Shown here: positions 3,975 through 52,469 of the stretch, piece after piece
How the letters are laid out: each line of letters begins with the position of its first letter
Position numbering within the stretch: position 1 is the stretch's first letter
Source: a virus
DNA length: 64,000 nucleotides
Virus record (IMG/VR): IMGVR_UViG_3300037504_000674
Span: 28,753-92,752 of that record
Direction: 5' to 3' (one strand)
The notes under the pieces: model-generated
Seen by the model: only the letters and a program-made list of their open reading frames with translations
The model's database searches: none
What the model was told of the DNA's origin: nothing
Program-made: the position numbers and the translations under genes

Positions 3975-3977
3975 CAA

Positions 3978-37921: not shown

Positions 37922-37949
37922 ATTATACCACGCCCGGCGGCTCTGTCAA
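37922..37949 (-). promoter_or_regulatory. Sigma70-type promoter TTGACA-N16-TATAAT for the replication operon
   Basis: Perfect hexamers, extended TG. Confidence 0.75.
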
Positions 37950-38714
37950 ATCGCCGGGCTCGCTGGCGCAGAACCAGCGCTCCTCCTCCCACGCCGCAAT
38001 GGCATCGGCCAGCTCAATGAGTTCTGCCTCATCGTCAGGGTCTGGCCCGATGTCTGTTAGCTCATCCATCAGCTCCTCGGCCCGCGCCAGGGCCGAGGTG
38101 TACTCTGCATCATTATTTATCTTCACGGCTCCTCCTCTATCACCGTTCTCGATCTCAGGTAAACAGCGCCGCTCGATACCGTCCCAATCATTCGCTAGTT
38201 CCACGAGTGCCGCGCGCGCCACCCGCAGCCTCTCGCGCTGCTCCTCGGTCATTTGCTCCATCGCAGGGCTGCGACGCAGGGTGTGATATGCCTGCTGGCA
38301 TTCCTGCTGATAGTCAGTTATGATGCCAAATGATCCGCACCATAATGGAAAACCTGACGAAAAGTCCAGATGTGCACCTTCCAGATTCGCACCTTCCAGA
38401 TTCGCGCCCTTCAGATTCGCGCCCTTCAGATTCGCACCATCCAGATTCGCGTCTTCTAGATGCGCACCCTTCATATTCGCGCCCTTCAGATTCACGCCCC
38501 TCATATTCGCACCCTCTAGATGCGCACTATTCAAATTTACACCATCCAGATTCGCGTCCGTCAGATGCGCATTCTTCAGATTCACGCCCCCCAGATTCGC
38601 GTTCACCAGATACGCGCGTCTAGGTTTAAAATCTACGCCAAAGCCTCGCCACGCCAGGTGCGGCCCGTACCACTCATGCACCCGCAAATGCGCCGGGATT
38701 TTATACATCGCCAT
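37923..38714 (-). CDS. Pentapeptide repeat protein with C-terminal HigA-like helical segment
   Basis: A(N/H)Lxx repeats (15-bp tandem DNA repeats ~38370-38610); C-terminal I.NDAEY..AL.R.EELM...EL..LADAI.AWE. Confidence 0.8.
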   Translation of the reverse strand: MAMYKIPAHLRVHEWYGPHLAWRGFGVDFKPRRAYLVNANLGGVNLKNAHLTDANLDGVNLNSAHLEGANMRGVNLKGANMKGAHLEDANLDGANLKGANLKGANLEGANLEGAHLDFSSGFPLWCGSFGIITDYQQECQQAYHTLRRSPAMEQMTEEQRERLRVARAALVELANDWDGIERRCLPEIENGDRGGAVKINNDAEYTSALARAEELMDELTDIGPDPDDEAELIELADAIAAWEEERWFCASEPGDLTEPPGVV

Positions 38715-38738
38715 TTCAAACCTCCTCGTATACACAAA

Positions 38739-38972: not shown

Positions 38973-39425
38973 CTAATCGCACTCCGCAAAAGTTTTTAGA
39001 TACTTCATAGCCTCTTGCCAATCCTCAAACACTATATCAGCAGCCTCCAACACGAAGGCGTGCTGATGAATGTTGGTTTCGTTCATCACTACAACGGTGT
39101 GCTTGTGCATCAGTGATGCCCAGGCTAGTTCGTACATCGTGCCTATGCTAACCCGGTCATGGCCATGCGTAAGATCGGCAAACACAATATCAGCATTAAG
39201 CACCATAAACTGGTCGCGCTCGAAGATCGCGTGGTTTGTGCTGATGGGATTGCCTGTGTAGCCGTGTGATTTGAACTCCAACTCAGTTCTCAGGTGTTCT
39301 TTTGCGCTCATTGGTGAGAGAACATCATACCCGTAGCCGCGTAGCATACGGCTGGTCTCTTCCAGATGCTTATTCACTTGCTCGTAACTTAGACCGCTGA
39401 TTGGGCCTGCGATGTACACCTTCAC
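38973..39425 (-). CDS. Nucleoside 2-deoxyribosyltransferase-like protein
   Basis: VYIAGP, IFERD, ADIVFAD, SIGT.YELAWA. Confidence 0.8.
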   Translation of the reverse strand: MKVYIAGPISGLSYEQVNKHLEETSRMLRGYGYDVLSPMSAKEHLRTELEFKSHGYTGNPISTNHAIFERDQFMVLNADIVFADLTHGHDRVSIGTMYELAWASLMHKHTVVVMNETNIHQHAFVLEAADIVFEDWQEAMKYLKTFAECD

Positions 39426-39465: not shown

Positions 39466-39927
39466 TTAGGTACCCTTAATCGCTTCCAGGGCCGCAGAGA
39501 GCGTCCCGTGCGCTCTCATAGCATTCTCTGCGTCCTCCCTATCTATCCCATACGCATAGAGCACAAATGCGAGTAAGTTTTCGTCACGTATATGCTCCAT
39601 AGTACAAATGGGGCATTGTTTAGTTGAGATGCTGCCTTCCGCGTAATTCCTAGCCACATCGTATCCGCCAGCGCGTATCTCTTTTGCGTAACGCTGCGCA
39701 TAGTCGTATGGCTGCCGCTCGAAGTATGTTGCTACTTCGTCTACATATTCTTCATCACCAATTTCTAAATCTAAGCGGTAGCCCTCAAGGAATTCATGGC
39801 CCGCTAAGCAATGTAAGAATCCTGCGTCAGATTCTACCAAGTCCCACCCAGATACAACTTCGCCAGAAACAGCGCAGATATAGGATGTTGAGCTACTGTT
39901 GGTTACGTGGGCTAGTTTAGTTTTCAT
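39466..39927 (-). CDS. VTNSSS-motif protein 4 (Cys-rich)
   Basis: MKTKLAHVTNSSSTSYIC; C..GH; CPIC. Confidence 0.75.
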   Translation of the reverse strand: MKTKLAHVTNSSSTSYICAVSGEVVSGWDLVESDAGFLHCLAGHEFLEGYRLDLEIGDEEYVDEVATYFERQPYDYAQRYAKEIRAGGYDVARNYAEGSISTKQCPICTMEHIRDENLLAFVLYAYGIDREDAENAMRAHGTLSAALEAIKGT

Positions 39928-40277
39928 GCGCACCGTCCACCTTTGCCATATCGCTCCTCGATTTCCTTGGATGTTTCGCTTGGATAGTAGTCTGCTTCCC
40001 CAATTTGGACTACATAATCACCTTCTGGGATATGTATTACCTTTGTATCGCCATCATAGAACTCAAAAAACACAGTTGGCCTAAATACCTGATATTCTTC
40101 CATCATGTATATCATCACGGCGACTATGTTTTCATCAGTGATCTTGATAACATCGAGACCCTCGTAGAGCATATCCCCGACAACCACATCACCTGGCTGA
40201 GGCTCATGAACGATATTCCCCACAATCAGGTAGTTCACACTGCTGCTATTTGTTACATGGGCTTGTTTTATTTTCAT
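39924..40277 (-). CDS. VTNSSS-motif protein 3
   Basis: MKIKQAHVTNSSSVNYLI. Confidence 0.75.
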   Translation of the reverse strand: MKIKQAHVTNSSSVNYLIVGNIVHEPQPGDVVVGDMLYEGLDVIKITDENIVAVMIYMMEEYQVFRPTVFFEFYDGDTKVIHIPEGDYVVQIGEADYYPSETSKEIEERYGKGGRCA

Positions 40278-40278
40278 C

Positions 40279-40758
40279 TTAGTGGCACTCCATTTGGTCA
40301 AGGGCGTATTCTTCAATAGCCCTGTTCATCTCGCTAGACAGATAACCACTCATGCCCTCGTCAGATTCCCGGATAAACAGCAAGTTCTTTCCGAGTTCGT
40401 AGAACCATCCCATAATCCATGGGCCAAGATTTATGTCCAGCGTGCTCAGGTAGTCTCCGTACTTTAGCGCATCTCTCCCCACCTCGTAAGATGTGCCTCG
40501 CCCCACGCCGATCTTAGATGCTTTTGCCAGCTCGGCCTGTTTTTCTAGGCGAAAGTACGTCTGACCTCCGTACTCTTCCGAATCAACGATTTCAAATCCA
40601 TCGCTTAGCAATCTCCCCACCTCTTGATGGCGCTTTCTGTACACTCTTATGGTTACATCCATAGTAGATTCGAGTGCAGATTGCACAACCGGGTTGGAAA
40701 GGTCTAGAATATAGCATGTTGAGCTACTATTGGTCACAAAACCTTGTCTAATTTTCAC
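40279..40758 (-). CDS. VTNSSS-motif protein 2
   Basis: GTG start with AGGAGG; MKIRQGFVTNSSSTCYIL. Confidence 0.75.
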   Translation of the reverse strand: MKIRQGFVTNSSSTCYILDLSNPVVQSALESTMDVTIRVYRKRHQEVGRLLSDGFEIVDSEEYGGQTYFRLEKQAELAKASKIGVGRGTSYEVGRDALKYGDYLSTLDINLGPWIMGWFYELGKNLLFIRESDEGMSGYLSSEMNRAIEEYALDQMECH

Positions 40759-41848
40759 TGCGATCCTCCTTTTTACACAGAACAATCTCTGGCTTCAACG
40801 GGCAGCCGCCCATGCACTCGTTCCTATTCTGGCAGGATGGGCAACTTGTCCTCAAATGGTCTCTGAATCGCTTGAACTTGTCGCTCGCCCATGCTTCCTC
40901 GATAGTGTGGTCTCTGAGAGAGACACCATATTCAGCACTTTGATCAAATGAGCATGGTGTCATGATCATATCCGGCGTGATATACGCACTGAACCTGGCT
41001 CCCTCGCAAGTATCCAGGTAGTCCATACGGACGCTACTTGCGAAATTGACAATACCTGGTGTTGAGCAGCTATCAACGCCGATGCTGAAGTTGCCCTGCC
41101 AGTTGCTTACAATGTCGAAGAACTCGTGCACTCGCGGGTCTTCAGCTCTCAGAACCTCAGATTGATCGCCAAGACCAACTGGTTTATGAATCAGGAAAAC
41201 GACCGCATTGATGCGGTTGGTTCCGTCTCCGAAGAAGTTGTTTTTCTTGAGCCTGTCGATGGCTTCGTCGATAGAGCTGTTGCTGAGGACGTAGTGGATG
41301 TTTGTGGTTGCACCAGCGCTAATAAAGGCATCGAGTGCCTTAAGGGTATATTTAGATCGGTACCAGGAAACCGCAACCGCGCCGCAGTACTCAACTGTCA
41401 GGCTCACTTCGTCTTGGGTAAGTTTGAGGCCGGAGGTGGTATAGTTCGGCACGATATCGTTAGCCCTGGTGAGCTTCAGTATATCACCAAACTGCTGGTG
41501 CTTGTTGGGGTCCCCGCGCCCGCCAAGAGCAACCTGCATGACCTTACCGCGAACCTGCCGAATGATTTCCTGATAGTCCAAATAACTCATATCTGGCTGA
41601 TGGACTCCCAGGCCGTCTTGATAGCATTGTACGCCAGCTCTCACGCATAGACCGGACGTACCGTGCTCGCAGCTACCCATGATACCGATGTCTAGCAGAT
41701 TTGGGAAACTGCGCATGAATGGGTCCTCACCAGTTAGAAACGACTCTGAGCGCATATATAACCCATCCTTGGCTCGGAACACTTCCCCGAACCCGAACTC
41801 AGTATCGAAGTACCTTGTAATACCGTGCAATTTTTTACTGTTGATCAC
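40748..41848 (-). CDS. Radical SAM/SPASM domain protein with expanded cluster motif
   Basis: CX7CX6C-YQ; ALGGRGDP; NYTTSG; SPASM C...PCSF...CxxCxxxxxCxGGCP. Confidence 0.9.
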   Translation of the reverse strand: MINSKKLHGITRYFDTEFGFGEVFRAKDGLYMRSESFLTGEDPFMRSFPNLLDIGIMGSCEHGTSGLCVRAGVQCYQDGLGVHQPDMSYLDYQEIIRQVRGKVMQVALGGRGDPNKHQQFGDILKLTRANDIVPNYTTSGLKLTQDEVSLTVEYCGAVAVSWYRSKYTLKALDAFISAGATTNIHYVLSNSSIDEAIDRLKKNNFFGDGTNRINAVVFLIHKPVGLGDQSEVLRAEDPRVHEFFDIVSNWQGNFSIGVDSCSTPGIVNFASSVRMDYLDTCEGARFSAYITPDMIMTPCSFDQSAEYGVSLRDHTIEEAWASDKFKRFRDHLRTSCPSCQNRNECMGGCPLKPEIVLCKKEDRSEN

Positions 41849-42387
41849 TTTTTCACCTCCGTTATCAACATGGACGGGAGAATAATCTGCTCGATGGTTT
41901 TAACATCTGAGATTTCGAGGATAACAAACTCCATTTGATCTGACGGCCCAAGATACTGGCACTCGAAAATCGTATCACAATAAGGGCACCGGAAATCATT
42001 CAGATCATCTAGATCGTATTCAGTTGAGAATATACCAGATAGTTCAGATTCGCTCTCGCAAACCGGGCATTGTATCCTCACCTGAGCTGGCGTATACTGG
42101 TCGTACCAGTATCTAAGCAAGTCTACAATATAAACCTCCCCAACTTCGTGAGTCTGTGCTTCTGCGATCAGATTGGCTTTGCGGATTTCTGAATATAGTC
42201 TCATCCGGTCTATAGTTGTCTTAAATGTGCCATCAGATATGAGTCTTTTGATATCACCCCACTCGTAATCACAGAATTTCTTGATGTAACCATCAAGAAG
42301 ATTTCTCTCCTCTGGCGTCAGGGCTTCTTTTGACAAAACGAAACTACTTGAACTTGAGTTTGTAACGTGACCATGCCTGCACTTCAT
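41845..42387 (-). CDS. VTNSSS-motif protein 1 (zinc ribbon)
   Basis: MKCRHGHVTNSSSSSFVL; CPVC...CPYC. Confidence 0.75.
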   Translation of the reverse strand: MKCRHGHVTNSSSSSFVLSKEALTPEERNLLDGYIKKFCDYEWGDIKRLISDGTFKTTIDRMRLYSEIRKANLIAEAQTHEVGEVYIVDLLRYWYDQYTPAQVRIQCPVCESESELSGIFSTEYDLDDLNDFRCPYCDTIFECQYLGPSDQMEFVILEISDVKTIEQIILPSMLITEVKK

Positions 42388-43252: not shown

Positions 43253-43253
43253 G

Positions 43254-43326
43254 TCTGGAGGGCCGGACTCGAACCGGCGATCTCCGAGTCCCAAACCCGG
43301 CGCTGTACCAGCTCAGCTACCCCCAG
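43254..43326 (-). tRNA. tRNA-Pro(TGG)
   Basis: Cloverleaf; CCGGG-TT TGG GA-CTCGG. Confidence 0.9.
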
Positions 43327-43330
43327 ATAG

Positions 43331-43401
43331 AGGGATGCCTGGGATTTGAACCCAGTCTGTCGGTGCCACAAACCGATGTGCTACCGCTACACCAGCATCC
43401 C
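43331..43401 (-). tRNA. tRNA-His(GTG)
   Basis: TCGGT-TT GTG GC-ACCGA; no encoded G-1. Confidence 0.85.
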
Positions 43402-43405
43402 GCAA

Positions 43406-43478
43406 TACCCTCGCCAGGACTCGAACCTGGATTGACGGTTTAGGAAACCGTCGCTCTGTCCTATTGAGCTACGAGGGC
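43406..43478 (-). tRNA. tRNA-Arg(CCT)
   Basis: ACGGT-TT CCT AA-ACCGT. Confidence 0.9.
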
Positions 43479-43486
43479 TTCTGGTT

Positions 43487-43699
43487 TCACCAGATGTGCT
43501 CTCTGAAGAGATATTCAACCTCCTCCGGGTGATTCGTGTTTCCGCCAGCCAGCAATCTAATACCATTGCTGGCCTGATCGTCTAGCTCAACTATCTTGAC
43601 TGCGATATCCTTCACAGGCTTGCAGAATCCAACTATGCTCATGAGGATATAGCAGAGTGCTTTCAGGAATTGAATTTCCGACGCGCCTCGTTGTGCCAC
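43487..43699 (-). CDS. Small hypothetical protein within the tRNA array
   Basis: AAGGAGG RBS, GTG start, fills the gap between tRNAs. Confidence 0.55.
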   Translation of the reverse strand: MAQRGASEIQFLKALCYILMSIVGFCKPVKDIAVKIVELDDQASNGIRLLAGGNTNHPEEVEYLFREHIW

Positions 43700-43720
43700 A
43701 TCTACCTCCTTTATGTTCAG

Positions 43721-43793
43721 TAGGAGCGGCGGGATTTGAACCCGCGATATCAGGGTTGAAGGCCCTGCGGCTTGTCCGCTTGCCCACGCTCCC
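43721..43793 (-). tRNA. tRNA-Glu(TTC), atypical C33
   Basis: CAGGG-CC TTC AA-CCCTG; Glu-like D arm. Confidence 0.75.
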
Positions 43794-43797
43794 GCGA

Positions 43798-43870
43798 CAG
43801 GGGGAGTAGGGCTCGAACCTACGACCTTGGGCTTCAAAGGCCCTCGCTCTTCCAATTGAGCTATCCCCCT
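43798..43870 (-). tRNA. tRNA-Gln(TTG)
   Basis: GGGC-CT TTG AA-GCCC; A1-U72, G73. Confidence 0.8.
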
Positions 43871-43872
43871 AG

Positions 43873-43945
43873 TGTTCGGTGCAGGGCTTGAACCTGCGAC
43901 CTCTGGCGTGTAAAACCAGCGCTCTCCCAACTGAGCTAACCGAAC
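43873..43945 (-). tRNA. tRNA-Val(TAC)
   Basis: CTGGT-TT TAC AC-GCCAG. Confidence 0.9.
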
Positions 43946-43949
43946 TAAG

Positions 43950-44031
43950 TGGGGGCGGGAGGACTCGAACCTCCGAAGCTCTCACACCTGATTTACAGTC
44001 AGGCTCCTTTGCCGCTCGGATACACGCCCCC
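43950..44031 (-). tRNA. tRNA-Tyr(GTA)
   Basis: CCTGA-CT GTA AA-TCAGG, long variable region; 5' end uncertain by 2 nt. Confidence 0.85.
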
Positions 44032-44034
44032 AAT

Positions 44035-44107
44035 GGCTGGCGGGAGGACTCGAACCTCCATAGGGCGCCTTACAAGGACGCTGCTTAATCCATTCAGCCA
44101 CGCCAGC
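44035..44107 (-). tRNA. tRNA-Thr(TGT)
   Basis: GCGTC-CT TGT AA-GGCGC. Confidence 0.85.
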
Positions 44108-44110
44108 TTA

Positions 44111-44182
44111 TTCCCGCTCCTGGAATTGAACCAGGCACCCCCGCGTTATCAGCACGGCGCTCTACCGATGAGCTAAGCGGGA
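44111..44182 (-). tRNA. tRNA-Ile(GAT)
   Basis: CCGTG-CT GAT AA-CGCGG. Confidence 0.85.
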
Positions 44183-44187
44183 CAAAG

Positions 44188-44260
44188 TGGATCAGGCAGG
44201 ACTCGAACCTGCAACCCACTCGTTATGAGCAAGTCGCTCTAACCGTTGAGCTACTGATCC
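44188..44260 (-). tRNA. tRNA-Met/Ile2(CAT), elongator type
   Basis: ACTTG-CT CAT AA-CGAGT. Confidence 0.85.
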
Positions 44261-44265
44261 AAAGG

Positions 44266-44350
44266 CGGAGAAGACAGGAATCGAACCTGTAGGGCTGTCA
44301 CACCTGACGCTTTTCAAGAGCGCTTGACTCACCACACTGTCCACTTCTCC
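44266..44350 (-). tRNA. tRNA-Ser(TGA)
   Basis: GCGCT-CT TGA AA-AGCGT, long variable arm, G73. Confidence 0.85.
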
Positions 44351-44354
44351 GTAG

Positions 44355-44426
44355 AGGCAACGGTCGGAATCGAACCGACGAAATGCGCATTTGCAGTGCG
44401 CCGCCTTGCCACTTGGCTACGTCGCC
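44355..44426 (-). tRNA. tRNA-Cys(GCA)
   Basis: GCGCA-CT GCA AA-TGCGC, U73. Confidence 0.9.
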
Positions 44427-44472
44427 AACTTGTGCTTCTTGCATCCACAGGACATTATTCTCATTCAGCTCC

Positions 44473-44694
44473 TCAGTGGTCGTAGTCCGCGTGCTCCGCG
44501 CCGCACTGCGGGTATTCGTACTGGCAATCTGCCAACTCGTCTGGCTCCGGGCACTCGCCGTTTAGATACACCGGGCACGTGCAGCCGCACCCTCCGTCCA
44601 TCCCGATATGAAAACACGGATCGCCCGTGATCATATGGTGAATCGGCCCGATGTTTGTCATATCGTTGATTGGCTCTCCATTGTATTTAAACAT
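44473..44694 (-). CDS. Small Cys/His-rich protein
   Basis: GGAGG RBS; C...GGCGCTCPV...GEC. Confidence 0.55.
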   Translation of the reverse strand: MFKYNGEPINDMTNIGPIHHMITGDPCFHIGMDGGCGCTCPVYLNGECPEPDELADCQYEYPQCGAEHADYDH

Positions 44695-44706
44695 GCTCCC
44701 TCCAAT

Positions 44707-44793
44707 GTAGCGGGTCGCCGTGCCCACCCCCACCGAATTGCCGTCTTTCCGGCTTTCAGTAGGGTGGTACTTAATGCACTTGATGAGCCCTAC
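44707..44793 (-). ncRNA. Unassigned rod-shaped structured RNA in the tRNA array
   Basis: Nested pairings GTAG/CTAC, GTGC/GCAC, CCACCC/GGGTGG, TACTGAA/TTCGGTG, GCCG-GAAAGA-CGGC. Confidence 0.35.
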
Positions 44794-44797
44794 GCAG

Positions 44798-44885
44798 CGG
44801 AGAAGGCGGGAATCGAACCCGCAGGCCTATTACAGACCACTCGTTTAGCAAACGAGCGTGCCGAACCAATATGCACCTCAACTCC
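44798..44885 (-). tRNA. tRNA-Ser(GCT)
   Basis: CTCGT-TT GCT AA-ACGAG, long variable arm; imperfect acceptor stem. Confidence 0.8.
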
Positions 44886-44886
44886 A

Positions 44887-44961
44887 TGGCGGGGATAACG
44901 GGAATCGAACCCGTGTCTTCTGTTCGACAGACAGATATTCTTGCCGCTGAACTATATCCCC
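44887..44961 (-). tRNA. tRNA-Asp(GTC)
   Basis: TCTGT-CT GTC GA-ACAGA; encoded GCCA end. Confidence 0.9.
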
Positions 44962-44962
44962 A

Positions 44963-45033
44963 TGAGCGCAGAGAGACTCGAACTCCCATTTGCTGATTAA
45001 GAGTCAGCTACTCTACCGTTGAGTTATGCGCCC
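44963..45033 (-). tRNA. tRNA-Lys(CTT)
   Basis: GCTGA-CT CTT AA-TCAGC. Confidence 0.88.
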
Positions 45034-45037
45034 GCTG

Positions 45038-45110
45038 TGCCGCCTCTCGGAATCGAACCGAGGACCCCCGGCTCTTCAGGCCGATGCTCTACCAACTGAG
45101 CTAAAGCGGC
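45038..45110 (-). tRNA. tRNA-Phe(GAA)
   Basis: TCGGC-CT GAA GA-GCCGG. Confidence 0.9.
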
Positions 45111-45114
45111 GGAG

Positions 45115-45187
45115 CTCCCAGGGCAGGACTCGAACCTGCACACCTCCGGTTAACAGCCGGACACTCTGCCAATTGAGCTACCTGGGA
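45115..45187 (-). tRNA. tRNA-Asn(GTT)
   Basis: TCCGG-CT GTT AA-CCGGA. Confidence 0.9.
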
Positions 45188-45781
45188 TTATGGTCTCACC
45201 ACTTGGCGGTACGGCTGTCGCCAATTGTCCGTGGTGTTTGGCGATATGAATTCTATCGCCCCTTGCCTTCGCTTTCTAGTAACACCTAGCCCAGAGCGCT
45301 TGATTACGTCATCTACGAACAGCCCCGGCTTAGTGATAGCGTGTGTGTATGATAGCGTGTGGACCTGGATGTCCGCTTCGTCTAACCTGACAACAAACCT
45401 GGATATCCGGTCGCATGTTAGCCTGAGCTCCCCCATGAACGGAGCACTTCGGTCGCCAATCCTCCTCTGCGTTACAGAGACAGGGTCCTTGAGTATTGCG
45501 AAGAATATAGGGTTTCTGAGAATGCGGTTAAGCCTTCTCAGGTGAGCATGAGCGCCGACATGCTTAAATCCCCACACGTCGTGGTCAGCGTTACGTCGCT
45601 GCACTAGCGCTTGCAATTCTTCGTCAGAACCCTTGAGAGCCCACCTTATTTCCTGGTCTTCCCAGGACATTCTGAGATAATCATCGCCAACCATCGGGAC
45701 GCCAAGTTGCTCAAATATACCTGTGAGCATCGTGGTGCCCGAATGTGCAAAACCACATACAACTACCGTTTTTTTGTCCAT
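45188..45781 (-). CDS. Sulfotransferase-family (P-loop) protein
   Basis: VVVCGFAHSGTTML (5'-PSB loop), LGV.M, WGFK, LKDP.SV; the longer listed ORF overlaps tRNA-fMet. Confidence 0.7.
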   Translation of the reverse strand: MDKKTVVVCGFAHSGTTMLTGIFEQLGVPMVGDDYLRMSWEDQEIRWALKGSDEELQALVQRRNADHDVWGFKHVGAHAHLRRLNRILRNPIFFAILKDPVSVTQRRIGDRSAPFMGELRLTCDRISRFVVRLDEADIQVHTLSYTHAITKPGLFVDDVIKRSGLGVTRKRRQGAIEFISPNTTDNWRQPYRQVVRP

Positions 45782-45783
45782 AG

Positions 45784-45855
45784 TTGCGGGAGCCGGATTT
45801 GAACCGGCGACCTTCGGGTTATGGGCCCGGCGAGCTACCACTGCTCCATCCCGCA
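45784..45855 (-). tRNA. Initiator-type tRNA-fMet(CAT), C33
   Basis: GGG/CCC anticodon stem, fMet-like body, loop CC CAT AA. Confidence 0.88.
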
Positions 45856-45856
45856 G

Positions 45857-45928
45857 CAAGTGTGACTGGACTCGAACCAGTATCGCCGGTGTTGGAGACC
45901 GGTGCTTTTCCAGTTAAGCTACACACTC
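45857..45928 (-). tRNA. tRNA-Trp(CCA)
   Basis: CCGGT-CT CCA AC-ACCGG. Confidence 0.88.
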
Positions 45929-45932
45929 CCAG

Positions 45933-46005
45933 TGGATGTGGCGGGATTTGAACCCGCGACCTCCTCCGTGCAAGAGAGGCGCGCTCCCATCTGCGCTACA
46001 CACCC
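45933..46005 (-). tRNA. tRNA-Ala(TGC)
   Basis: CCTCT-CT TGC AC-GGAGG; G3:U70. Confidence 0.92.
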
Positions 46006-46009
46006 AAGT

Positions 46010-46173
46010 TATCAGCAGAGAGCGAGGGGCAGGACTCGAACCTGCAACCGCAGCCTGTCAACTGCGTAGGCGCCCAGGAAATCCAAGTGACAGCTTGGAC
46101 GCCTGCGGATACACCTCTCGGCTCACATAGGAGCCTTAGCCTCGCTCTGTGGCAGCCCTCGCTCTCTACTGAC
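46010..46173 (-). ncRNA. tRNA-like structured ncRNA (T-arm, long closing stem, kissing loops; manA-like candidate)
   Basis: GCAGG-TTCGAGT-CCTGC; 18-bp terminal stem; complementary loops CTGTCA/TGACAG. Confidence 0.65.
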
Positions 46174-46179
46174 AATCAG

Positions 46180-46250
46180 GGCGGGTGAGGGGGATCGAAC
46201 CCCTATCATTGGCTTGGAAGGCCAAGGCCCTACCGTTGGACTACACCCGC
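46180..46250 (-). tRNA. tRNA-Gly(TCC)
   Basis: TTGGC-CT TCC AA-GCCAA. Confidence 0.88.
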
Positions 46251-46253
46251 ACA

Positions 46254-46324
46254 TACGGGCAGCCGGACTTGAACCGGCATCTTCAGCATGGCAAGCTGAC
46301 GTTCTACCGTTGAACTACGCCCGT
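46254..46324 (-). tRNA. tRNA-Gly(GCC)
   Basis: TCAGC-TT GCC AT-GCTGA. Confidence 0.88.
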
Positions 46325-46335
46325 TAAAACCGGTG

Positions 46336-46479
46336 TTAAGCCGATTCGCCATTGAGATAATGCACACGCTCGGCGGCCTCCTCCGGCGTATTCCAGTCGC
46401 TTTCTGGGAACCATTTCCCAGTTGGGTCATAAAACCCGACCGTCCATAGACCCGGCTCAGATCGAATATACACGTACAT
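46336..46479 (-). CDS. Small phage protein (47 aa, MYVYIRSEPGLWTVGFYDPTGKWFPESD...AAERVHYLNG)
   Basis: Read manually; AAGGAGG RBS; own promoter. Confidence 0.7.
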   Translation of the reverse strand: MYVYIRSEPGLWTVGFYDPTGKWFPESDWNTPEEAAERVHYLNGESA

Positions 46480-46515
46480 CTATTGCCTCCTTCGCCTCGT
46501 TTGGCATCCTAGTGT

Positions 46516-46543
46516 ATTATATCACGTTGTTGTTAACTATCAA
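46516..46543 (-). promoter_or_regulatory. Sigma70-type promoter TTGATA-N16-TATAAT (second half of the tRNA array)
   Basis: Near-consensus, extended TG. Confidence 0.65.
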
Positions 46544-46576
46544 CTGACATGCATCACGTCACAAGCGTGACATACG

Positions 46577-47059
46577 TCAAACCTCAAGATATACTTTCCA
46601 ACTCTTGGGTATTCTTCCTCTTGCCACCAGATAGTCAACCCTGGGTGTTTTTGGTTCCCACATGAGCTTCATACCGGCCTCATGTGGGGTGCGGTCTGCT
46701 TTACGCTGATTGCACTCGTAGCATGAGCAAATCGTGTTACCCCATGTGCTCTTGCCGCCGTGCGATACCGGGACCACATGGTCAATCGTTCGGCCCGGCC
46801 TACCGCAGTACCCGCATGTATAATCATCGCGCTTGATCACACCGCGACGTGTCCATCTCGCGTTTCGTCTGGGTACATTTACATAGTGTTTAAGCCGGAT
46901 AACCTCCGGCACATCAAAACAACCGGACACAGTTTTGAAGCTGCGTGCCAGATCGTCGGTTACACCATGCGCAACATTCTTCCAGAGCAGCGTGGCCGCT
47001 TTGCGGTCCGACACCACGCGCAACGGCTCGTAACTTGCATTAAGCAATAGAACTGACAT
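46577..47059 (-). CDS. HNH endonuclease (McrA-like, VLLLNASYEPL family)
   Basis: RD.YTC.YCG...TIDHVVP.S.GG...W.N...C..CN..K. Confidence 0.9.
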   Translation of the reverse strand: MSVLLLNASYEPLRVVSDRKAATLLWKNVAHGVTDDLARSFKTVSGCFDVPEVIRLKHYVNVPRRNARWTRRGVIKRDDYTCGYCGRPGRTIDHVVPVSHGGKSTWGNTICSCYECNQRKADRTPHEAGMKLMWEPKTPRVDYLVARGRIPKSWKVYLEV

Positions 47060-47071
47060 TTTTTCTCCTAG

Positions 47072-47145
47072 TGAGGGTGGCAGGATTTGAACCTGCGGTC
47101 CTTGGCTTAAAAGGCCACTGCTCTACCAGGCTGAGCTACACCCCC
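47072..47145 (-). tRNA. tRNA-Lys(TTT)
   Basis: TGGC-CT TTT AA-GCCA. Confidence 0.88.
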
Positions 47146-47150
47146 AAACA

Positions 47151-47231
47151 TGGCGATAGAGGGAGTCGAACCCTCATGCTTTCGCGGTGCATTTTAACTG
47201 CCCTGTGTATGCCTGCTTCCACCATATCGCC
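47151..47231 (-). tRNA. tRNA-Leu(TAA) copy 1 (imperfect anticodon stem)
   Basis: GGGCA-GT TAA AA-TGCAC, variable arm GC-GAAA-GC. Confidence 0.75.
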
Positions 47232-47235
47232 TTAG

Positions 47236-47317
47236 TCTCGCCGCAGGGAGTCGAACCCTGATAGTCACTAGGACACTGGTTTTAAACCAGCCGCGTAGCC
47301 ATTTCCGCCACGGCGAG
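47236..47317 (-). tRNA. tRNA-Leu(TAA) copy 2
   Basis: GCTGG-TT TAA AA-CCAGT, long variable arm. Confidence 0.8.
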
Positions 47318-47324
47318 GTGAATC

Positions 47325-48179
47325 TTAACTGCGCTCTTGGCAATGAACCCTTAAGTGTTTCTTTATTGCGTTGTCAGACACGCCAAGTTCTCTTCCCAAA
47401 GCAGAGTAGTTGCTTTCATCAAGTCTTTGTCTAAGTTCTTCGCAGGAGGGCCAATCTATCTTGAAGTTAGCCCGATGCTTTCCGGCGCATGGCTTGCACC
47501 TCGTCGCGTTACATGATATTTTTGCGCCGCAGTCCACACAATACTTCTGCTCTGATCCTCTTTTTATCTGCAAGCCATTTTTTGCCATCAGCTTGTATGC
47601 CCTGTTGTATGTTGCGCCTATGGAGAGACCTACCGAGAGCAACGCCTGCCTAATGCTATCTTCTTCCCTGAGCGCTCTCAACAATTCCTCATCACTAACT
47701 ACAGCATTTGACTTGTTCTTGCCACAATAAGTAGGTGTTTGGGAGTGGCAGTTTGGGCACAAGAATCTTAGGTTCGACAACCTATGATCTCTGCGTCTTC
47801 CATTCACATGATCTAGTTGAAGAACAAGCTCTTCCCCCATCCACTTCCCGTCATTTCCGCAAATATCGCACGCATATGGAATTAGCCCTTCTTTTATAAT
47901 AATTTCTTTGATAGTGTTGCGCGGCGTCTTCGAGCCTTTACAGAACTTTTCGTCTGGCGAGGCTCCTATTCTTTCATCAGAGTATGAGGTTTTCCCAAGC
48001 GCCCACCCCTGCCCAAGAAAGTGATCAGTCTGTATCCCCAAATTTTCTATTCTGTCCCTTACAAGAGCGTGACTCCCGCTGCCCTTTAGTCCAAGCTTCT
48101 TTCTTACAGAAGCATAAGACTCAGATGTTTTACATGCCTCTATCAATTGATCATCTGTCCAACTTCTTCTTCTGCTCAC
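47325..48179 (-). CDS. Free-standing HNH homing endonuclease with HTH/zinc-finger modules
   Basis: CDICG...LQLDHVNG...D.RLSNLRFLCPNCHSQT; CVDCG...CKPC; LGVSDNAIKK; GTG start at 48179 inferred. Confidence 0.85.
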   Translation of the reverse strand: MSRRRSWTDDQLIEACKTSESYASVRKKLGLKGSGSHALVRDRIENLGIQTDHFLGQGWALGKTSYSDERIGASPDEKFCKGSKTPRNTIKEIIIKEGLIPYACDICGNDGKWMGEELVLQLDHVNGRRRDHRLSNLRFLCPNCHSQTPTYCGKNKSNAVVSDEELLRALREEDSIRQALLSVGLSIGATYNRAYKLMAKNGLQIKRGSEQKYCVDCGAKISCNATRCKPCAGKHRANFKIDWPSCEELRQRLDESNYSALGRELGVSDNAIKKHLRVHCQERS

Positions 48180-48268
48180 TTTTCCCCCTATTAGGAAACT
48201 AAAGGGGCTATCTTGGTGAATAGGCACCAAGAAGGGCCGTCGCCTTTTCGCCCCGATTGACAACAGTG

Positions 48269-48722
48269 CTGGTGGTTTCCGCATTTCCTTCGACCACCGA
48301 CGCAGCGCATCATTTTCTTCTCTTAGGTATTTCCATTTCCCGTCATCTGGGCTTAGTGCGTAGGAATCCAATGCCCCCAGCTAGTTCTTTTGCGCGGAAG
48401 CCAGTCATTAGTGCGCTGGCGGCGCTCAAGCTCTGCACGCCATCGCTGCCACCCCGATCTCCGATAAACCTTGAGCAGCATGTCCGCGAAAACTGGGTAA
48501 GGGTCATCGGGCCAGCTATAGTATTGCGTTAAGTCTATACTGCGATACGCCTCAGACAGCTCATGCGTCCAGGGGTAGCACATAACCCGCCCAATCAACC
48601 TTTGGCGCAGCCGCTCGTCGGTAAGCCATAGCGGATTTACATCGTTGCTGCTAATCAGGTGCCCGCACTGGTGGTTTCCGCATTTCCTTCGACCACCAAC
48701 GCAGCGCATCATTTTCTTCTCT
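48269..48722. repeat. 55-bp direct repeat (48269-48323 and 48668-48722, 1 mismatch)
   Basis: CTGGTGGTTTCCGCATTTCCTTCGACCACC(G/A)ACGCAGCGCATCATTTTCTTCTCT. Confidence 0.9.
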
Positions 48723-48916
48723 ACGCCCTCGACGAATGGGCACAGCCAGCCATCATGCCATGAAACAGAGAGCGGGCCAAAATCACCCCACAATTTACGT
48801 GCCGACTCGCCAAGAGTGGGGTAGCAGTAGTATTCTTTTGGCTCCATCCACTTCACTTTGCGACCGTAGCGGTTCTTTATCCAAAGCCCTTTACGGGTCC
48901 GGCGCTCCATTTTCAC
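48353..48916 (-). CDS. Hypothetical protein
   Basis: GGAGG RBS right after tRNA-Arg. Confidence 0.5.
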   Translation of the reverse strand: MKMERRTRKGLWIKNRYGRKVKWMEPKEYYCYPTLGESARKLWGDFGPLSVSWHDGWLCPFVEGVEKKMMRCVGGRRKCGNHQCGHLISSNDVNPLWLTDERLRQRLIGRVMCYPWTHELSEAYRSIDLTQYYSWPDDPYPVFADMLLKVYRRSGWQRWRAELERRQRTNDWLPRKRTSWGHWIPTH

Positions 48917-48929
48917 TTTTGCCTCCAGG

Positions 48930-49002
48930 CTCCCCCGTCAGGACTCGAACCTGAATCACCCACTCCGCAGGCGGGCACTCTATCCAATTGAGCTACAGGG
49001 GA
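48930..49002 (-). tRNA. tRNA-Arg(GCG)
   Basis: CCCGC-CT GCG GA-GTGGG; Arg-type D loop GGATA. Confidence 0.85.
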
Positions 49003-49003
49003 A

Positions 49004-49075
49004 TGCGAGCAGGGAGAGTCGAACTCCCGTCTGCGGCTTGAGAGGCCGCTATCCTTCCCGCTAGACGATGCTCGC
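49004..49075 (-). tRNA. tRNA-Glu(CTC)
   Basis: GCGGC-CT CTC AA-GCCGC. Confidence 0.88.
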
Positions 49076-49078
49076 TAG

Positions 49079-49202
49079 TGGAGATGGCCGGAATCGAACC
49101 GGCGTCCGCAATGCGTACATGCTCCTCGCCGCAAGTTTGTTCTCCGCGCTTTTCTCTTGCTAGAAACATGCCTGTAGCACCACGTCTAATCCGATCATCC
49201 CC
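49079..49202 (-). ncRNA. ssrA: Miniature tmRNA-like RNA (124 nt)
   Basis: 5' GGGGATGATCGGATTAGAC; 3' GGACGCCGGTTCGATTCCGGCCATCTCCA; G3:U70; no D-stem; long helix 2; no pseudoknot ring. Confidence 0.8.
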
Positions 49203-49204
49203 AA

Positions 49205-49292
49205 TGCGGGCGGGGGGAGTCGAACCCCCACCAAGGTTCAACCTTGTACCTGGCGCCTAAGACCAGAGCATCTGCCATTCTGCCACGCCCGC
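49205..49292 (-). tRNA. tRNA-Leu(TAG)
   Basis: CTGGT-CT TAG GC-GCCAG, long variable arm. Confidence 0.88.
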
Positions 49293-49298
49293 TTGATC

Positions 49299-49326
49299 AT
49301 TATACTGCTTTTGCCGAACTTGTCAA
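49299..49326 (-). promoter_or_regulatory. Sigma70-type promoter TTGACA-N16-TATAAT heading the RNA island
   Basis: Perfect hexamers; predicted +1 coincides with the 5' G of tRNA-Leu. Confidence 0.75.
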
Positions 49327-49368
49327 AACCTTAAGGGGGAGGGTTTTGACGCCCTCCCCGCAGTGGCT

Positions 49369-49734
49369 CTACAGCTCTTCAATCATCGCCTGAATCTCTT
49401 CGGGCGACAACTCTTCAAGCTGCTGTTCTTGCTTGCGCTCTAGCACTTCTAGTAACTGCCGCTTCTTGGCGGCACGTGCAGCCTCGTTCTTGGCTTGCTG
49501 CCGCTCTTCCAGCTTGACACCGACAATGTGCTTGATGATGCCGATCTTCAACTGCAAGACATCATCCTGCTTACCCTCAGAAAGAAGGCTGTCTTGTTGC
49601 TGTTCCCTTGCGACTCGATTAAGGTTTTGGTAAATGCTGTCCAGAGCCTCACAGCTCAAGTCCCAAAGGTCCTCTGCGCACAGAGAACCGCGATACTGCC
49701 ACCGTAACTTCAAACGCAGCGCCTCTTCAAACAT
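49369..49734 (-). CDS. Conserved phage coiled-coil protein (MFE.A.RLKLR...EDLWDL)
   Basis: Recalled phage family usually adjacent to the upstream large gene. Confidence 0.7.
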   Translation of the reverse strand: MFEEALRLKLRWQYRGSLCAEDLWDLSCEALDSIYQNLNRVAREQQQDSLLSEGKQDDVLQLKIGIIKHIVGVKLEERQQAKNEAARAAKKRQLLEVLERKQEQQLEELSPEEIQAMIEEL

Positions 49735-49744
49735 TTTGTCCCCC

Positions 49745-51781
49745 TTAGTTGAAAACGACTTTGACAATACGATTACCGTTGATCCTCGCCACAATGTAAT
49801 TATCTCTTGTGGCGCTGAATCCTACGCCGGAAAGTTGCTCGTCATCATCCTCTACCCGCATCTTATTGCCAAGCGCTGCAAAAATGCGCTTGTGCTTCAT
49901 CAATTCTTCTGGAAGATACTCGTTGAAGAAGCCGCTTGGCCTTTCGTCGTTCTTGGTACCAGGAATCATGAATAAGTAGTGCCGGTGCCCAATGTGATTA
50001 TCACCCCAGTAGTTTGGCGAGTAACACACCAACGACACTCGATGGAACCGATTGGTATCCAGGCCCCAGACCTCGCGGCTGCTGTCCGATGTAGGCAGAG
50101 ACTTGATGAAGCGGATACCGCGCTGTCTATCGAACTCGATTTTGGCGACAAGCACCTGCCCCTTGTGCGGTATATCCTTGCGGTATTCAAACTCGAATAC
50201 CTGACCATTATACTCGATCTCCGCAGAAAAGCCAGATCGCCCACCCCGATGCTGATAGTTTTTGACAAACAGCTTATAAACACCGGGTTGCATGAGGCTA
50301 GGGTCAGACCAGGTGATATTTTCTACTGCCACCTGTCTAACCTTTGGGTGAATGATGTCTACGTCAAGAACACCAGAAGACGGATGTGTTTGTCGTTTGT
50401 TGGGAAAGTAGATGTGGTTTCCGTCGGGCTCGATGCAATGCGCGTCATAGTCATTACGGTTGTCAAATTCTTCATTCCATTGCAACGAGAACCTCAGAAC
50501 GCCCTTGACGTTCCCGCCAGCCGCCTTGACCCGGCGCTTCATATCCGAGTCCGCCATGTTACCAGAGTATGCCCAAGTAAATCCATTGCTCCACTTTGTC
50601 AGTGGCTTGCTATCGGTTGCTTGTGGAGCAATCAAAGAGACGAGGTTAGCTGCGTGCCGATTCTCAAGCAGAACCTCGATCTTGGCGGATTCCGGGATGA
50701 CATTGTCGATGAATTCCTGAGCACCTACCGCTGCGACATCACGGAACTTGCGCGGGTTGACAGTTTCTTCATCCCTTAAAACATCGAATACACCCCCGCT
50801 GCCCGCCATGTGCGGCATCGCATCTCGGTCGGCGAACAGCACGTCATTCACGGTAACGTCTCTGAGGTGAGCAAACCTACGCGGCAGAGCGCTCGTGACC
50901 CCCAGCCTCTCCGCATCCTCTTCGGCTTCGTCAACCATCTTGCGTGTATAGATGGCTTTAGGCCGCTTATAGTTATGCGGCGCGACGATGTTCTCGTAAC
51001 GACGCACGGATTCGATAACGTCCTTGCCATCTGAGATGTCAGCGAGCAGGACGCCGATAGAGTGATTGCGTAACCTAGTCAGCGCGCCGCCAGCCTCGGC
51101 GGCCTGCTTCCAACAGAAGTTTGTCTTCTGATTTTCTGGTAGTTCCGAGTATTCGTGTTGCAACACGCGGAACCTACTCAGGAGCCCGCGCCACTCCTCG
51201 CCCTTATACAGATTGCCCTCCTCAATGAGATCGAGGATAGTCTCGATCGCGTAGGGGTCAATCTCTTCTAGCGAGCGTTCAAAGACGTGCCGTGAGTCTC
51301 TGATGGTGGCCTGGAACTCGCTTGCGGTTTGGTGATCTGGGACCACCAAATGATCTGGCAGCTCGACATAGAAGTGGTGCCATGTATGAACATCGCCACT
51401 CTCAAGCATTTCCCGGTTTGCGTTAGTGCCAATCTTCGCCAGCTTAGAGGCAAAGGTGTTGGCCACCGGATTACTCTTGACGTACTCTGATAGGGCATCG
51501 ATGACTGGCTGGTAAACCTCGTCAGCCTCGAAGTCCCACACCGACACAAGTTCGTTATCAACGATGGCGACCACGTCGCCGAACTTCTTGATGAAGTGGC
51601 GGCAGCACGAACAATCAAATGCCCTGCGTTCGCGGTAGATGCCGTTGACGCCTTCCGGGAAGCTGTCTAGGTACAACTCCCAGAGCTGCTCGTGATCTAC
51701 ATCTGTCACGAACAACACAGACTCGGATGACATCGAATCGAAATGCTCTTGGAACAACGCCTTGAATTCTTTGAATTGCAT
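49745..51781 (-). CDS. Large conserved phage protein with CSCC motif and YfaP/DUF2135-like domain
   Basis: FDCSCCRHF; LRFSLQW...DYD.H..EP.G...LDVD...AVENITW. Confidence 0.75.
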   Translation of the reverse strand: MQFKEFKALFQEHFDSMSSESVLFVTDVDHEQLWELYLDSFPEGVNGIYRERRAFDCSCCRHFIKKFGDVVAIVDNELVSVWDFEADEVYQPVIDALSEYVKSNPVANTFASKLAKIGTNANREMLESGDVHTWHHFYVELPDHLVVPDHQTASEFQATIRDSRHVFERSLEEIDPYAIETILDLIEEGNLYKGEEWRGLLSRFRVLQHEYSELPENQKTNFCWKQAAEAGGALTRLRNHSIGVLLADISDGKDVIESVRRYENIVAPHNYKRPKAIYTRKMVDEAEEDAERLGVTSALPRRFAHLRDVTVNDVLFADRDAMPHMAGSGGVFDVLRDEETVNPRKFRDVAAVGAQEFIDNVIPESAKIEVLLENRHAANLVSLIAPQATDSKPLTKWSNGFTWAYSGNMADSDMKRRVKAAGGNVKGVLRFSLQWNEEFDNRNDYDAHCIEPDGNHIYFPNKRQTHPSSGVLDVDIIHPKVRQVAVENITWSDPSLMQPGVYKLFVKNYQHRGGRSGFSAEIEYNGQVFEFEYRKDIPHKGQVLVAKIEFDRQRGIRFIKSLPTSDSSREVWGLDTNRFHRVSLVCYSPNYWGDNHIGHRHYLFMIPGTKNDERPSGFFNEYLPEELMKHKRIFAALGNKMRVEDDDEQLSGVGFSATRDNYIVARINGNRIVKVVFN

Positions 51782-51818
51782 TGGTTTATCCTTTCGGCTA
51801 TAGAAAAGTTTCCAAATA

Positions 51819-52235
51819 TCACCGCATCTCAGCAAGGGCGTCATACATGGCCGTAACAAGCGTGGGCGCCCACCCGATCGCTAGTCTTTTAGTGTGCCCC
51901 CTCAGCACCCATCGCCCAAGCTCTGCGCTATATCTGAACCAGACATTGTGTCTGGTGAGCAACCGCTCCATCTCGTCTGCCACGAACCGATGCAGAAAAA
52001 CTTCCGCATCGTGGCAATAACTAAACTCCGTGGGTGTATACCACGGGCTTCCGCATAGCGCAAGGGCGTCGTCTATCAACATGTTGGAATACTCAATCGA
52101 TTTTCCATCGACGGCTTTAACGAACAGCGTGTGGTCGTAGTGTCTGAAGTAGCGAACAATGGCGTCAGCGTGTTTGTTGTCCAGGCGTCTCCTTTCCTCT
52201 TCTGTCATTTGATCTTTGTTCAGTTCGCTCAACAT
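51819..52235 (-). CDS. Hypothetical protein, paralog of 57085..57753
   Basis: Shared LF..A..GKS..Y.NML.DD..AL.GSP......F.YC. Confidence 0.7.
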   Translation of the reverse strand: MLSELNKDQMTEEERRRLDNKHADAIVRYFRHYDHTLFVKAVDGKSIEYSNMLIDDALALCGSPWYTPTEFSYCHDAEVFLHRFVADEMERLLTRHNVWFRYSAELGRWVLRGHTKRLAIGWAPTLVTAMYDALAEMR

Positions 52236-52238
52236 TTT

Positions 52239-52469
52239 TTATCCTCCAGTGGTGGTTAGTATCATGGCTTTGTTGACATCATCCTCTTCAGCAAGTGATA
52301 GAACTCGCCTAGCGCACTCCAAGTATTGTTGTTTGGTGACGCCTTGGGCGGACAAGATAATGTGAGAAGGAATGATGGATCGGTTAAGGGATAGAAACTC
52401 TGCTGCACCCCGCGCGCTTCTGCCACGCCGGGCAGTCGCCGCAGCCTGGCGCTGGCTTCGTGGGGTCAC
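52239..52469 (-). CDS. Hypothetical protein
   Basis: Fills the operon gap. Confidence 0.4.
   Translation of the reverse strand: MTPRSQRQAAATARRGRSARGAAEFLSLNRSIIPSHIILSAQGVTKQQYLECARRVLSLAEEDDVNKAMILTTTGG

Follow-up and report, generated by a model that had tools for sequence, protein, structure and literature searches.

Why should four viral proteins that can hardly be aligned elsewhere begin with the same short sequence and be encoded in one tight cluster with a putative radical S-adenosylmethionine (SAM) enzyme? This question is raised by a five-gene cluster in a 64,000-nucleotide stretch of viral DNA, hereafter the window, which comprises positions 28,753 to 92,752 of the 92,752-bp IMG/VR virus record IMGVR_UViG_3300037504_000674. 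We propose, with a probability of roughly 0.6, that the cluster encodes a two-component, tag-directed module for the radical modification of whole proteins. In this module, the shared N-terminal sequence (the tag) is probably the docking and modification site of the enzyme, as suggested by the joint occurrence of tag and enzyme in phages and anaerobic bacteria, and the tagged proteins (the clients) would be the four flanking proteins in the window and hundreds of unrelated proteins elsewhere. The proposal is built on the anatomy of the cluster, the conservation of the tag, the unrelatedness of the client bodies, the co-occurrence of tag and enzyme in both directions and the fold of the enzyme.

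The preliminary description of this DNA had reported five tightly coupled genes, and all five open reading frames (ORFs) were found head to tail on the minus strand between window positions 39466 and 42387. The start codons and Shine-Dalgarno sites were checked. The genes are translationally coupled, with adjoining genes either overlapping by 4-11 nt or abutting each other: the stop of client A overlaps the start of the enzyme gene, and the GTG start of client B overlaps the end of the enzyme gene by 11 nt. No convincing terminator was seen inside the cluster. The start first given for client B had to be replaced by this GTG. The features of the cluster are as follows:

41845-42387, minus strand: client A, ATG start, 180 amino acids, tag MKCRHGHVTNSSSSSF, isoelectric point (pI) 4.7
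42334-42387, minus strand: tag-coding segment of client A (residues 1-18)
40748-41848, minus strand: enzyme, GTG start behind GGAGGTG, 366 amino acids
41744-41848, minus strand: enzyme residues 1-35, a small beta-sheet in which the last strand (residues 28-35) is the predicted pairing partner of tag residues 2-6
41624-41671, minus strand: enzyme residues 60-75, CEHGTSGLCVRAGVQC, a CX7CX6C triad where radical SAM enzymes carry CX3CX2C
40775-41008, minus strand: enzyme residues 281-358, cysteines of the SPASM domain
40279-40758, minus strand: client B, GTG start behind AAGGAGG, 159 amino acids, tag MKIRQGFVTNSSSTCY, pI 4.9
39924-40277, minus strand: client C, ATG start, 117 amino acids, tag MKIKQAHVTNSSSVNY, pI 4.5
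39466-39927, minus strand: client D, ATG start, 153 amino acids, tag MKTKLAHVTNSSSTSY, pI 4.65

In the public gene call (P0001), the enzyme is only 280 amino acids long, begins at the internal Met87 and is therefore without the CX7CX6C triad and the N-terminal sheet. Two observations favor the 366-amino-acid form with its GTG start at 41848: a Shine-Dalgarno site precedes this codon, and homologues align over 96% of the longer version.

The four window proteins begin M-K-x-(R/K)-x-x-(H/F)-V-T-N-S-S-S, which confirms the earlier observation that the motif sits at the same distance from the start Met in all of them. In a six-frame scan of the whole 92,752-bp genome, the pattern [VIL][TSA]NSS[ST] occurs at an ORF start exactly four times, always in this cluster, while the number of VTNSSS hexamers expected by chance, roughly estimated from residue frequencies, is ~0.01. 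The tag begins at Met1 in each of 279 tagged proteins, which come from 80 viral loci, and has the consensus M1-K2-(I/V/F/L)3-R4-x5-(D/G)6-F7-V8-T9-N10-S11-S12-S13-S14-S15-(F/Y)16-(I/V)17, in which K2, R4, F7, V8, T9, N10 and S11-S15 are each conserved in at least 94% of the proteins. Position 7 is F, Y or H across the tags. The window tags are the most divergent seen (K4, G/A6, H7, T/V14 and C/N15), and together with the other tags they define an invariant core of V8-T9-N10-S11-S12-S13. The tags of Klebsiella phage Matisse read FVSNSSS, their core thus being VSNSSS instead of the VTNSSS of the window, which suggests, as far as these sequences go, that NSSS and not position 9 is the universal tag core. 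When a 40-position tag profile was searched against 1.84 billion representative proteins, 23,476 clusters were matched at E<=0.001, and 147 of the 150 best-scoring matches have the motif among their first ten residues.

Eleven of these best 150 matches (P0121-P0133) are single ORFs with two tags. The second tag is preceded by a start-like residue (Met, once Val) in 10 of the 11, and these ORFs look like two neighboring client genes read as one through fusion, a lost stop or a gene-call artifact. A tblastn search of phages with a canonical client gave no match, for which the low-complexity filter acting on the Ser run was probably responsible.

Beyond the tag, the clients have little in common. 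The four window proteins had been described as otherwise unalignable, and outside the motif they are only 23-28% identical in a forced alignment. The Cys clusters noted earlier in two of them belong to clients A (seven Cys) and D (four Cys), both with CxxC pairs. The body of client A, with two such pairs, is zinc-ribbon-like and has weak Zn-ribbon Pfam matches at residues 104-148, whereas client D belongs to a client cluster of 50 sequences with a Cys/His zinc-ribbon and helical body (C18, C40, H44 and C105-P-x-C108). Clients A, B and C are singletons in the client clustering, and the bodies of B and C are without known relatives. Searches of Pfam, NCBIfam and PADLOC with the clients gave no informative match, and an ESM Atlas search returned only unnamed viral clusters with scores all below 0.9. 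For the model of client D, Foldseek found nothing at E<=0.001 and the best match in the VIA wide fold search had a Z of 4.6. The clients are acidic, with pI values of 4.5-4.9 for the four window proteins and a median of 4.6 over the clients. By BLAST, the 411 unique clients from all loci fetched were grouped into at least 60 clusters. There is no recurrent Pfam family in a set of 109 diverse clients, and some bodies are BspA-type leucine-rich repeats (LRR_5; in bacterial clients) or Zn ribbons. Thus the tag is portable across diverse proteins, as the preliminary description had suggested, because the bodies that carry it are unrelated.

These bodies also bear on a reading that we consider very improbable, namely that all clients are one diverged family with a single fold, whose first strand and following loop would present a catalytic or ligand-binding NSSS, the enzyme being a partner and not a modifier. 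The AlphaFold2 (AF2) model of free client D (predicted local distance difference test score, pLDDT, 83.6) agrees with it in that the first strand of the zinc-ribbon body is made up of S13-I17, and a zinc ligand follows at residue 18. However, residues 1-10 are unstructured in this model (coil, pLDDT <50), and only S13-I17 lie in a body strand, so the motif is not merely a buried core strand, an outcome that the preliminary description had named as a refutation. PHROG 7397, annotated as of unknown function, groups some members of the putative family, but its matches cover little beyond the tag: client A matches profile positions 1-19 (E 0.041), and the matches of canonical clients (E 3e-7 to 5e-3) are mostly to the tag only. 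When the sequences behind the tag were compared as profiles between the 13 largest client clusters with HHalign, no similarity was seen, with probabilities of at most 20% throughout, and a single fold is also hard to reconcile with bodies that range from ~50 to 1062 amino acids and include LRR_5 proteins.

The co-occurrence of tag and enzyme was counted from both sides. We compared 80 viral and 80 bacterial loci found through the enzyme with 75 viral loci found through the tag. Among the enzyme-anchored viral loci, 74/80 contain tag genes (1-8 per locus, on the same strand and mostly downstream). Five of the six tag-less loci end 0.2-3.2 kb past the enzyme, and the sixth (L042) has 3.7 kb of downstream sequence without a tag. 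In the enzyme-anchored bacterial genomes and metagenome-assembled genomes (MAGs), which are mainly from Clostridia with some from Anaerolineaceae and Bacteroidales, a tag gene is found on the same strand in 76/80 loci, usually as a single gene directly adjoining that of the enzyme. Conversely, 64 of the 75 tag-anchored viral loci have the enzyme within 10 kb upstream and 2 more have it elsewhere in the same genome; of the rest, 4 are cut off upstream, and in 5 no enzyme was found, 4 of these lying in incomplete records. The tag is therefore not mostly found alone; the reverse had been named at the outset as a result that would refute the link. The preliminary description had regarded the module as a phage system. 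It is indeed found in phages, but enzyme and tag are also encoded on contigs of anaerobic bacteria, from both MAGs and isolates, and the module is therefore not restricted to phages. No other gene family is common to the loci, and the module is thus taken to consist of the enzyme and its clients.

The module also occurs in cultured phages, as seen in complete genomes of Straboviridae. In coliphage RB43 (enzyme at 92938-93765 of NC_007023) and Klebsiella phage Matisse, the enzyme is found together with two clients (in Matisse MKIRSGFVSNSSSSSF) at a distance of 20-24 kb, whereas with the same two queries neither enzyme nor tag was found in T4, RB69, RB49, KVP40 and Aeh1. Enzyme homologues of the Slopekvirus type were found in 172 cultured phage records, mostly of phages of Klebsiella, Enterobacter, Cronobacter and Citrobacter.

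Two further observations concern the composition of the loci. Three tag genes but no enzyme were found in L084 (IMGVR_UViG_3300045988_167012), which is close to L083/L085, either within 10 kb or elsewhere in this 81.8-kb record; as the record is 60% complete, the pattern may reflect loss of the enzyme or the missing part of the record. A WYL-domain (WYL+WCX) regulator is encoded just upstream of the enzyme in the bacterial loci L181 (8586-9566) and L194 (8731-9705) and in four more. A WYL regulator was rejected as a conserved partner, being upstream in only 6/80 bacterial loci by BLAST. In L181, a tagged protein is followed by a BspA-LRR protein of 1180 amino acids.

Alternatively, the tag might be an address, for example for capsid packaging or for export, with the enzyme linked to it for some other reason. 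In T4, the internal proteins are hypervariable small phage proteins that are encoded in arrays and share a capsid-targeting sequence as a short conserved N-terminus. The clients follow the same general pattern, and they too are small and acidic. The T4 sequence is, however, different from the tag, the prohead protease cleaves it, and it is not accompanied by a radical SAM enzyme. Single enzyme-client pairs occur in bacterial loci without phage genes among the neighbors examined, and enzyme and tag have the same phyletic pattern even where they lie 20 kb apart. Moreover, the window cluster is located beside a tRNA array and near a primase-like gene, not in a head module, and the complex model and the covariation described below point to direct contact between tag and enzyme. 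A targeting signal is therefore an improbable explanation.

The second component had been described as a radical SAM enzyme with a C-terminal SPASM domain. The SPASM domain is matched above curated cut-offs (PF13186, 28.2 bits versus 21.5; TIGR04085, 28.6 versus 27), and the fold is that of a radical SAM enzyme, whereas at the level of sequence the radical SAM part is atypical: the window enzyme has no match to PF04055 (Radical_SAM) at E<=1, and a few of its homologues have a precomputed match to this family. In place of the canonical CX3CX2C, the loop after beta-1 contains C60-x7-C68-x6-C75, which is invariant in 67 homologues. Also invariant in these homologues are the SPASM cysteines C281, C299, C336-x2-C339-x5-C345-x3-C349 and C358 as well as the upstream C261; the seven-cysteine SPASM pattern is thus present, although C281-x17-C299 is slightly longer than the consensus CX9-15GX4C. 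The segment A107-L-G109-G110-R-G112-D113 is invariant and, by alignment and model, is positioned at the strand end where the SAM-binding GGE-type motif is expected. More than 4,368 relatives of the enzyme were found by a word-indexed search of metagenomes and MAGs, the nearest being 50-67% identical. A more distant relative, Matisse gp164 (3905-5050 of its locus), is 28% identical to the window enzyme, has CX7CX2C and contains fewer cysteines in the aligned C-terminal (SPASM) stretch.

The AF2 model of the enzyme (pLDDT 93.9, predicted template modeling score 0.92) consists of a four-stranded N-terminal sheet (residues 2-33), a partial TIM barrel and a C-terminal SPASM domain, and its Cys-bearing loop directly follows the first TIM-barrel strand. 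The partial (beta/alpha)6 TIM-barrel fold is matched with Z scores of 15-26 in many solved radical SAM enzymes. The closest solved structures are SPASM/twitch enzymes, all of which modify peptides or proteins, i.e., SuiB (Z 26.2, root-mean-square deviation (rmsd) 3.6, 323 residues aligned), SkfB (Z 23.7), anSME (Z 21.5, rmsd 2.9, 283 residues aligned), CteB (Z 21.2), and PqqE and ChlB (Z 20.7). By its modeled fold, the enzyme is therefore a radical SAM/SPASM enzyme with a non-canonical cluster motif. Whole-protein scans found no Pfam or NCBIfam domain before residue 70, and the sheet modeled for residues 1-35 is too short for a winged-helix RiPP recognition element (RRE; RiPP, ribosomally synthesized and post-translationally modified peptide).

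How the two components may meet was addressed with a complex model calculated from an enzyme alignment, a 40-residue tag alignment, three [4Fe-4S] clusters and SAM. Prediction of an enzyme-peptide complex had been proposed in the preliminary description as a check, and the predicted complex passes its controls, with an ipSAE of 0.90 compared to 0.00 for the best of three controls. The mark applied to this score was reached by 58/80 solved complexes and 2/110 mismatched pairs, a calibration that holds roughly for a model with its own alignments and with ligands included. The runs agreed in at least 91% of the contacts, and the pLDDT of the partner was at least 61. As the enzyme family profile has no match among PDB sequences at E<=0.01, recall of a solved complex is less likely. 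In the model, only tag residues 1-18 touch the enzyme. Tag residues 2-6 pair with enzyme strand 28-35, and F7, V8 and T9 touch enzyme residues 105-107, 133-135 and 156-157 next to the GG motif. The interface also includes enzyme residues 181-185, 215-219, 255-263 and 276-301 and so reaches into the SPASM part. Conservation of at least 90% was found for 28/56 interface residues compared to 86/310 residues elsewhere (p 0.0015). The model thus supports binding of tag residues 1-18 in the enzyme cavity, in a docking geometry that is a prediction.

Sequence covariation is consistent with such a contact. Asp is found at tag position 6 in 132/160 unique enzyme-tag sets, and the enzyme residues 181 and 255 in these sets are Lys or Arg; K181 and K255 both belong to the modeled interface. 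The basic residues at 181 and 255 were lost together in four separate lineages, i.e., the window (T181, S255), the L002 clade, L135 and L234. No tag of these four lineages has Asp6, and none of the 132 enzymes with D6 tags only has lost both basic residues.

On this basis, the following mechanism is proposed. The CX7CX6C site of the enzyme would hold the SAM-cleaving [4Fe-4S] cluster, and its full set of further cysteines would hold two auxiliary clusters. Clients would be recognized solely through the N-terminal tag. Tag residues 2-6 would add as a beta-strand to the N-terminal sheet of the enzyme at residues 28-35, and residues 7-18 would be inserted into the barrel, lying between the SAM site and the SPASM domain, while the folded body stays outside. 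The 5'-deoxyadenosyl radical would then abstract a hydrogen from a residue of V8-T9-N10-S11-S12-S13, and the electron would be taken up by the auxiliary clusters, yielding an oxidized or cross-linked tag. Candidate reactions are a formylglycine-type oxidation of Ser, as in anSME, and the formation of an aromatic-x-Thr cyclophane, as in triceptides. The NSSS core kept in both VTNSSS and VSNSSS points to N10-S13 as the modification site. No protease, transporter or exporter is conserved in the loci, and the product would thus be a modified protein and not a secreted peptide. That a covalent modification is made, its chemistry and purpose, and the role of the clients as effectors, are inferred.

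The same contacts could also be read differently. The tag might be a handle only, which docks the clients to the enzyme and itself remains unmodified; the clients would then be adaptors or regulators that bring the enzyme to targets bound by their bodies, be they proteins, nucleic acids or small molecules, or they would be modified further inside the body. Bodies that include binding modules, such as BspA LRR repeats and Zn ribbons, would suit this role, as would the simple strand addition modeled for tag residues 2-6 and the lack of extra conserved maturation genes. We nevertheless regard it as unlikely. The most invariant residues of the tag (T9, N10 and S11-S13) lie beyond the strand-pairing segment and are modeled inside a conserved cavity near the putative SAM-binding residues 105-110 and 133-137, and an invariant NSSS would be needless in a strand that serves docking alone. 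Furthermore, since the tag is the only part common to the clients, one active site could hardly serve their unrelated bodies.

The invariance of N10 and S11-S13 has another conceivable cause. Known autoprocessing reactions take place at Asn-Ser and Ser-Ser bonds, and the tag could be cleaved or rearranged unaided, in a pyruvoyl- or succinimide-type reaction, with the enzyme acting elsewhere. Such a reaction needs a folded catalytic environment, yet the bodies behind the tag are unrelated and the tag is modeled as flexible. Self-processing would also leave the strict co-occurrence with the enzyme unexplained, and we give it very little credence.

Several points weigh against tag-directed radical modification. 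The window enzyme lacks the canonical CX3CX2C as well as a Pfam Radical_SAM match, so radical chemistry is deduced from its fold and conserved cysteines. In the clients of cluster 2, the tag runs into the zinc ligand C18 and S13-I17 belong to a body strand; threading of the tag up to residue 18 would thus need local unfolding or an enzyme that acts before the client folds. The complex score is the model's own confidence, and the use of own alignments and ligands falls outside its calibration. The covariation between D6 and K181-K255 rests on four events, and because these are so few, an independent-pairs sign test is not significant (median p 0.25-0.5). Finally, no enzyme was found along with the tag in the incomplete records L084, L127/L128 and L141, and in L148 none was found within 8.7 kb.

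If tag-directed modification is nonetheless correct, how does it compare with known systems? By fold, the enzyme would work like SuiB, anSME or CteB, but defined features place it outside each of them. Its best structural match, SuiB, which cross-links Lys and Trp of SuiA in streptide formation (PDB 5v1q/5v1s/5v1t), likewise has a radical SAM barrel and a SPASM domain with two auxiliary clusters and binds a ribosomally made polypeptide in the barrel. SuiB is, however, only 14-18% identical to the enzyme, without a sequence-level match, and its N-terminal RRE domain and CX3CX2C are replaced in the window enzyme by a 35-residue beta-sheet and CX7CX6C, respectively. The substrates differ as well: SuiA is a short peptide of leader and core, and the clients are whole proteins of 50-1062 amino acids with folded bodies behind an N-terminal tag, unlike the short precursors of RiPPs, which are later cleaved and usually exported.

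What the module would have in common with anSME/AtsB (PDB 4k36-4k39) is a SPASM radical SAM enzyme that modifies full-length proteins at a short motif present in all of them; anSME oxidizes Ser or Cys, and the tag core is Ser-rich. In contrast, the enzyme scores 12.7 bits against TIGR03942, for which the cut-off is 349.45, the tag lacks the sulfatase motif C/S-x-P/A-x-R and sulfatases are not among the clients. While anSME serves one enzyme family, the clients are unrelated to each other. The maturases of triceptides, or three-residue cyclophanes (Fxs, Xye and Grr), are SPASM radical SAM enzymes that act on aromatic-x-x motifs. The tag contains such motifs in (F/Y/H)7-V8-T9 and (F/Y)16-x-x, and F7-T9 make the tightest modeled contacts near the SAM site. 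The enzyme has no NCBIfam match to the Fxs, Xye and Grr families, however, and triceptide substrates are short peptides in which the motif is often C-terminal or repeated. The FxSxx/SPASM systems found among conflict systems (PMC7159879) were considered as the same system and rejected as a different one.

The one experimental lead comes from the KpAvs2-Avap1-Avap2 operon, in which a STAND NTPase is encoded together with the radical SAM protein Avap1 and a small protein of unknown function, Avap2, which HHpred assigned to DUF6375 (Bechon et al., 2024, PMC11564622). Both proteins are needed for full KpAvs2 defense; Avap2 binds Avs2, and Avap1 is needed against some phages (PMC11564622). With HMMER, which is less sensitive than the HHpred used by Bechon et al., DUF6375 (PF19902) was not among the matches of the window clients at E<=1, nor was it among the 25 most recurrent families of the 109 diverse clients at E<=0.1. 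The PADLOC models gave no match, and no STAND gene was found among the neighbors examined.

A broader reading, which we hold tentatively and which falls slightly short of an even chance, is that the module is a general radical "arming" system. It would place a novel covalent N-terminal modification on dozens of unrelated phage proteins, probably host-takeover or counter-defense factors, and on LRR and other binding proteins in anaerobic bacteria, and their activity, stability or delivery would depend on the modification. The role in host takeover or counter-defense is a guess prompted by the clients being small and acidic (median pI 4.6).

If the tag is modified, whole proteins would be subject to a widespread type of post-translational modification for which the full-text literature searched has no description; nothing relevant was found there on the tag motif or on phage SPASM enzymes. 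Its logic resembles that of RiPP leader peptides, here applied to folded proteins. Should the arming reading be true, it would be a new class of leader-guided whole-protein modification extending over >20,000 protein families. Given the 23,476 clusters matched by the tag profile, a large share of the small acidic phage proteins now called hypothetical would gain a common handle for study. The enzyme would extend the list of non-canonical radical SAM cluster motifs by CX7CX6C and CX7CX2C, and a short portable tag recognized by one enzyme could become a tool for protein engineering. The system is directly testable because RB43 and Matisse carry both of its parts.

The sequencing runs that contain the window DNA, one of which may be its source, are from tidal-flat metagenomes only, with no RNA run listed. 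A blastn search of cultured phages with the cluster region gave no match, and a terminase-like ORF has a single weak match, to a Microcystis phage. The neighboring features are:

43253-52986, minus strand: array of 29 tRNA genes for most amino acids, directly upstream of the cluster
38973-39425, minus strand: nucleoside 2-deoxyribosyltransferase (PF05014, E 4.7e-11), downstream neighbor of client D
37923-38735, minus strand: protein of 270 amino acids

The nucleoside 2-deoxyribosyltransferase gene is probably co-transcribed with the cluster, and the translation of the 270-amino-acid protein contains a long run of pentapeptide-like A(N/H)LxGANLxG repeats.

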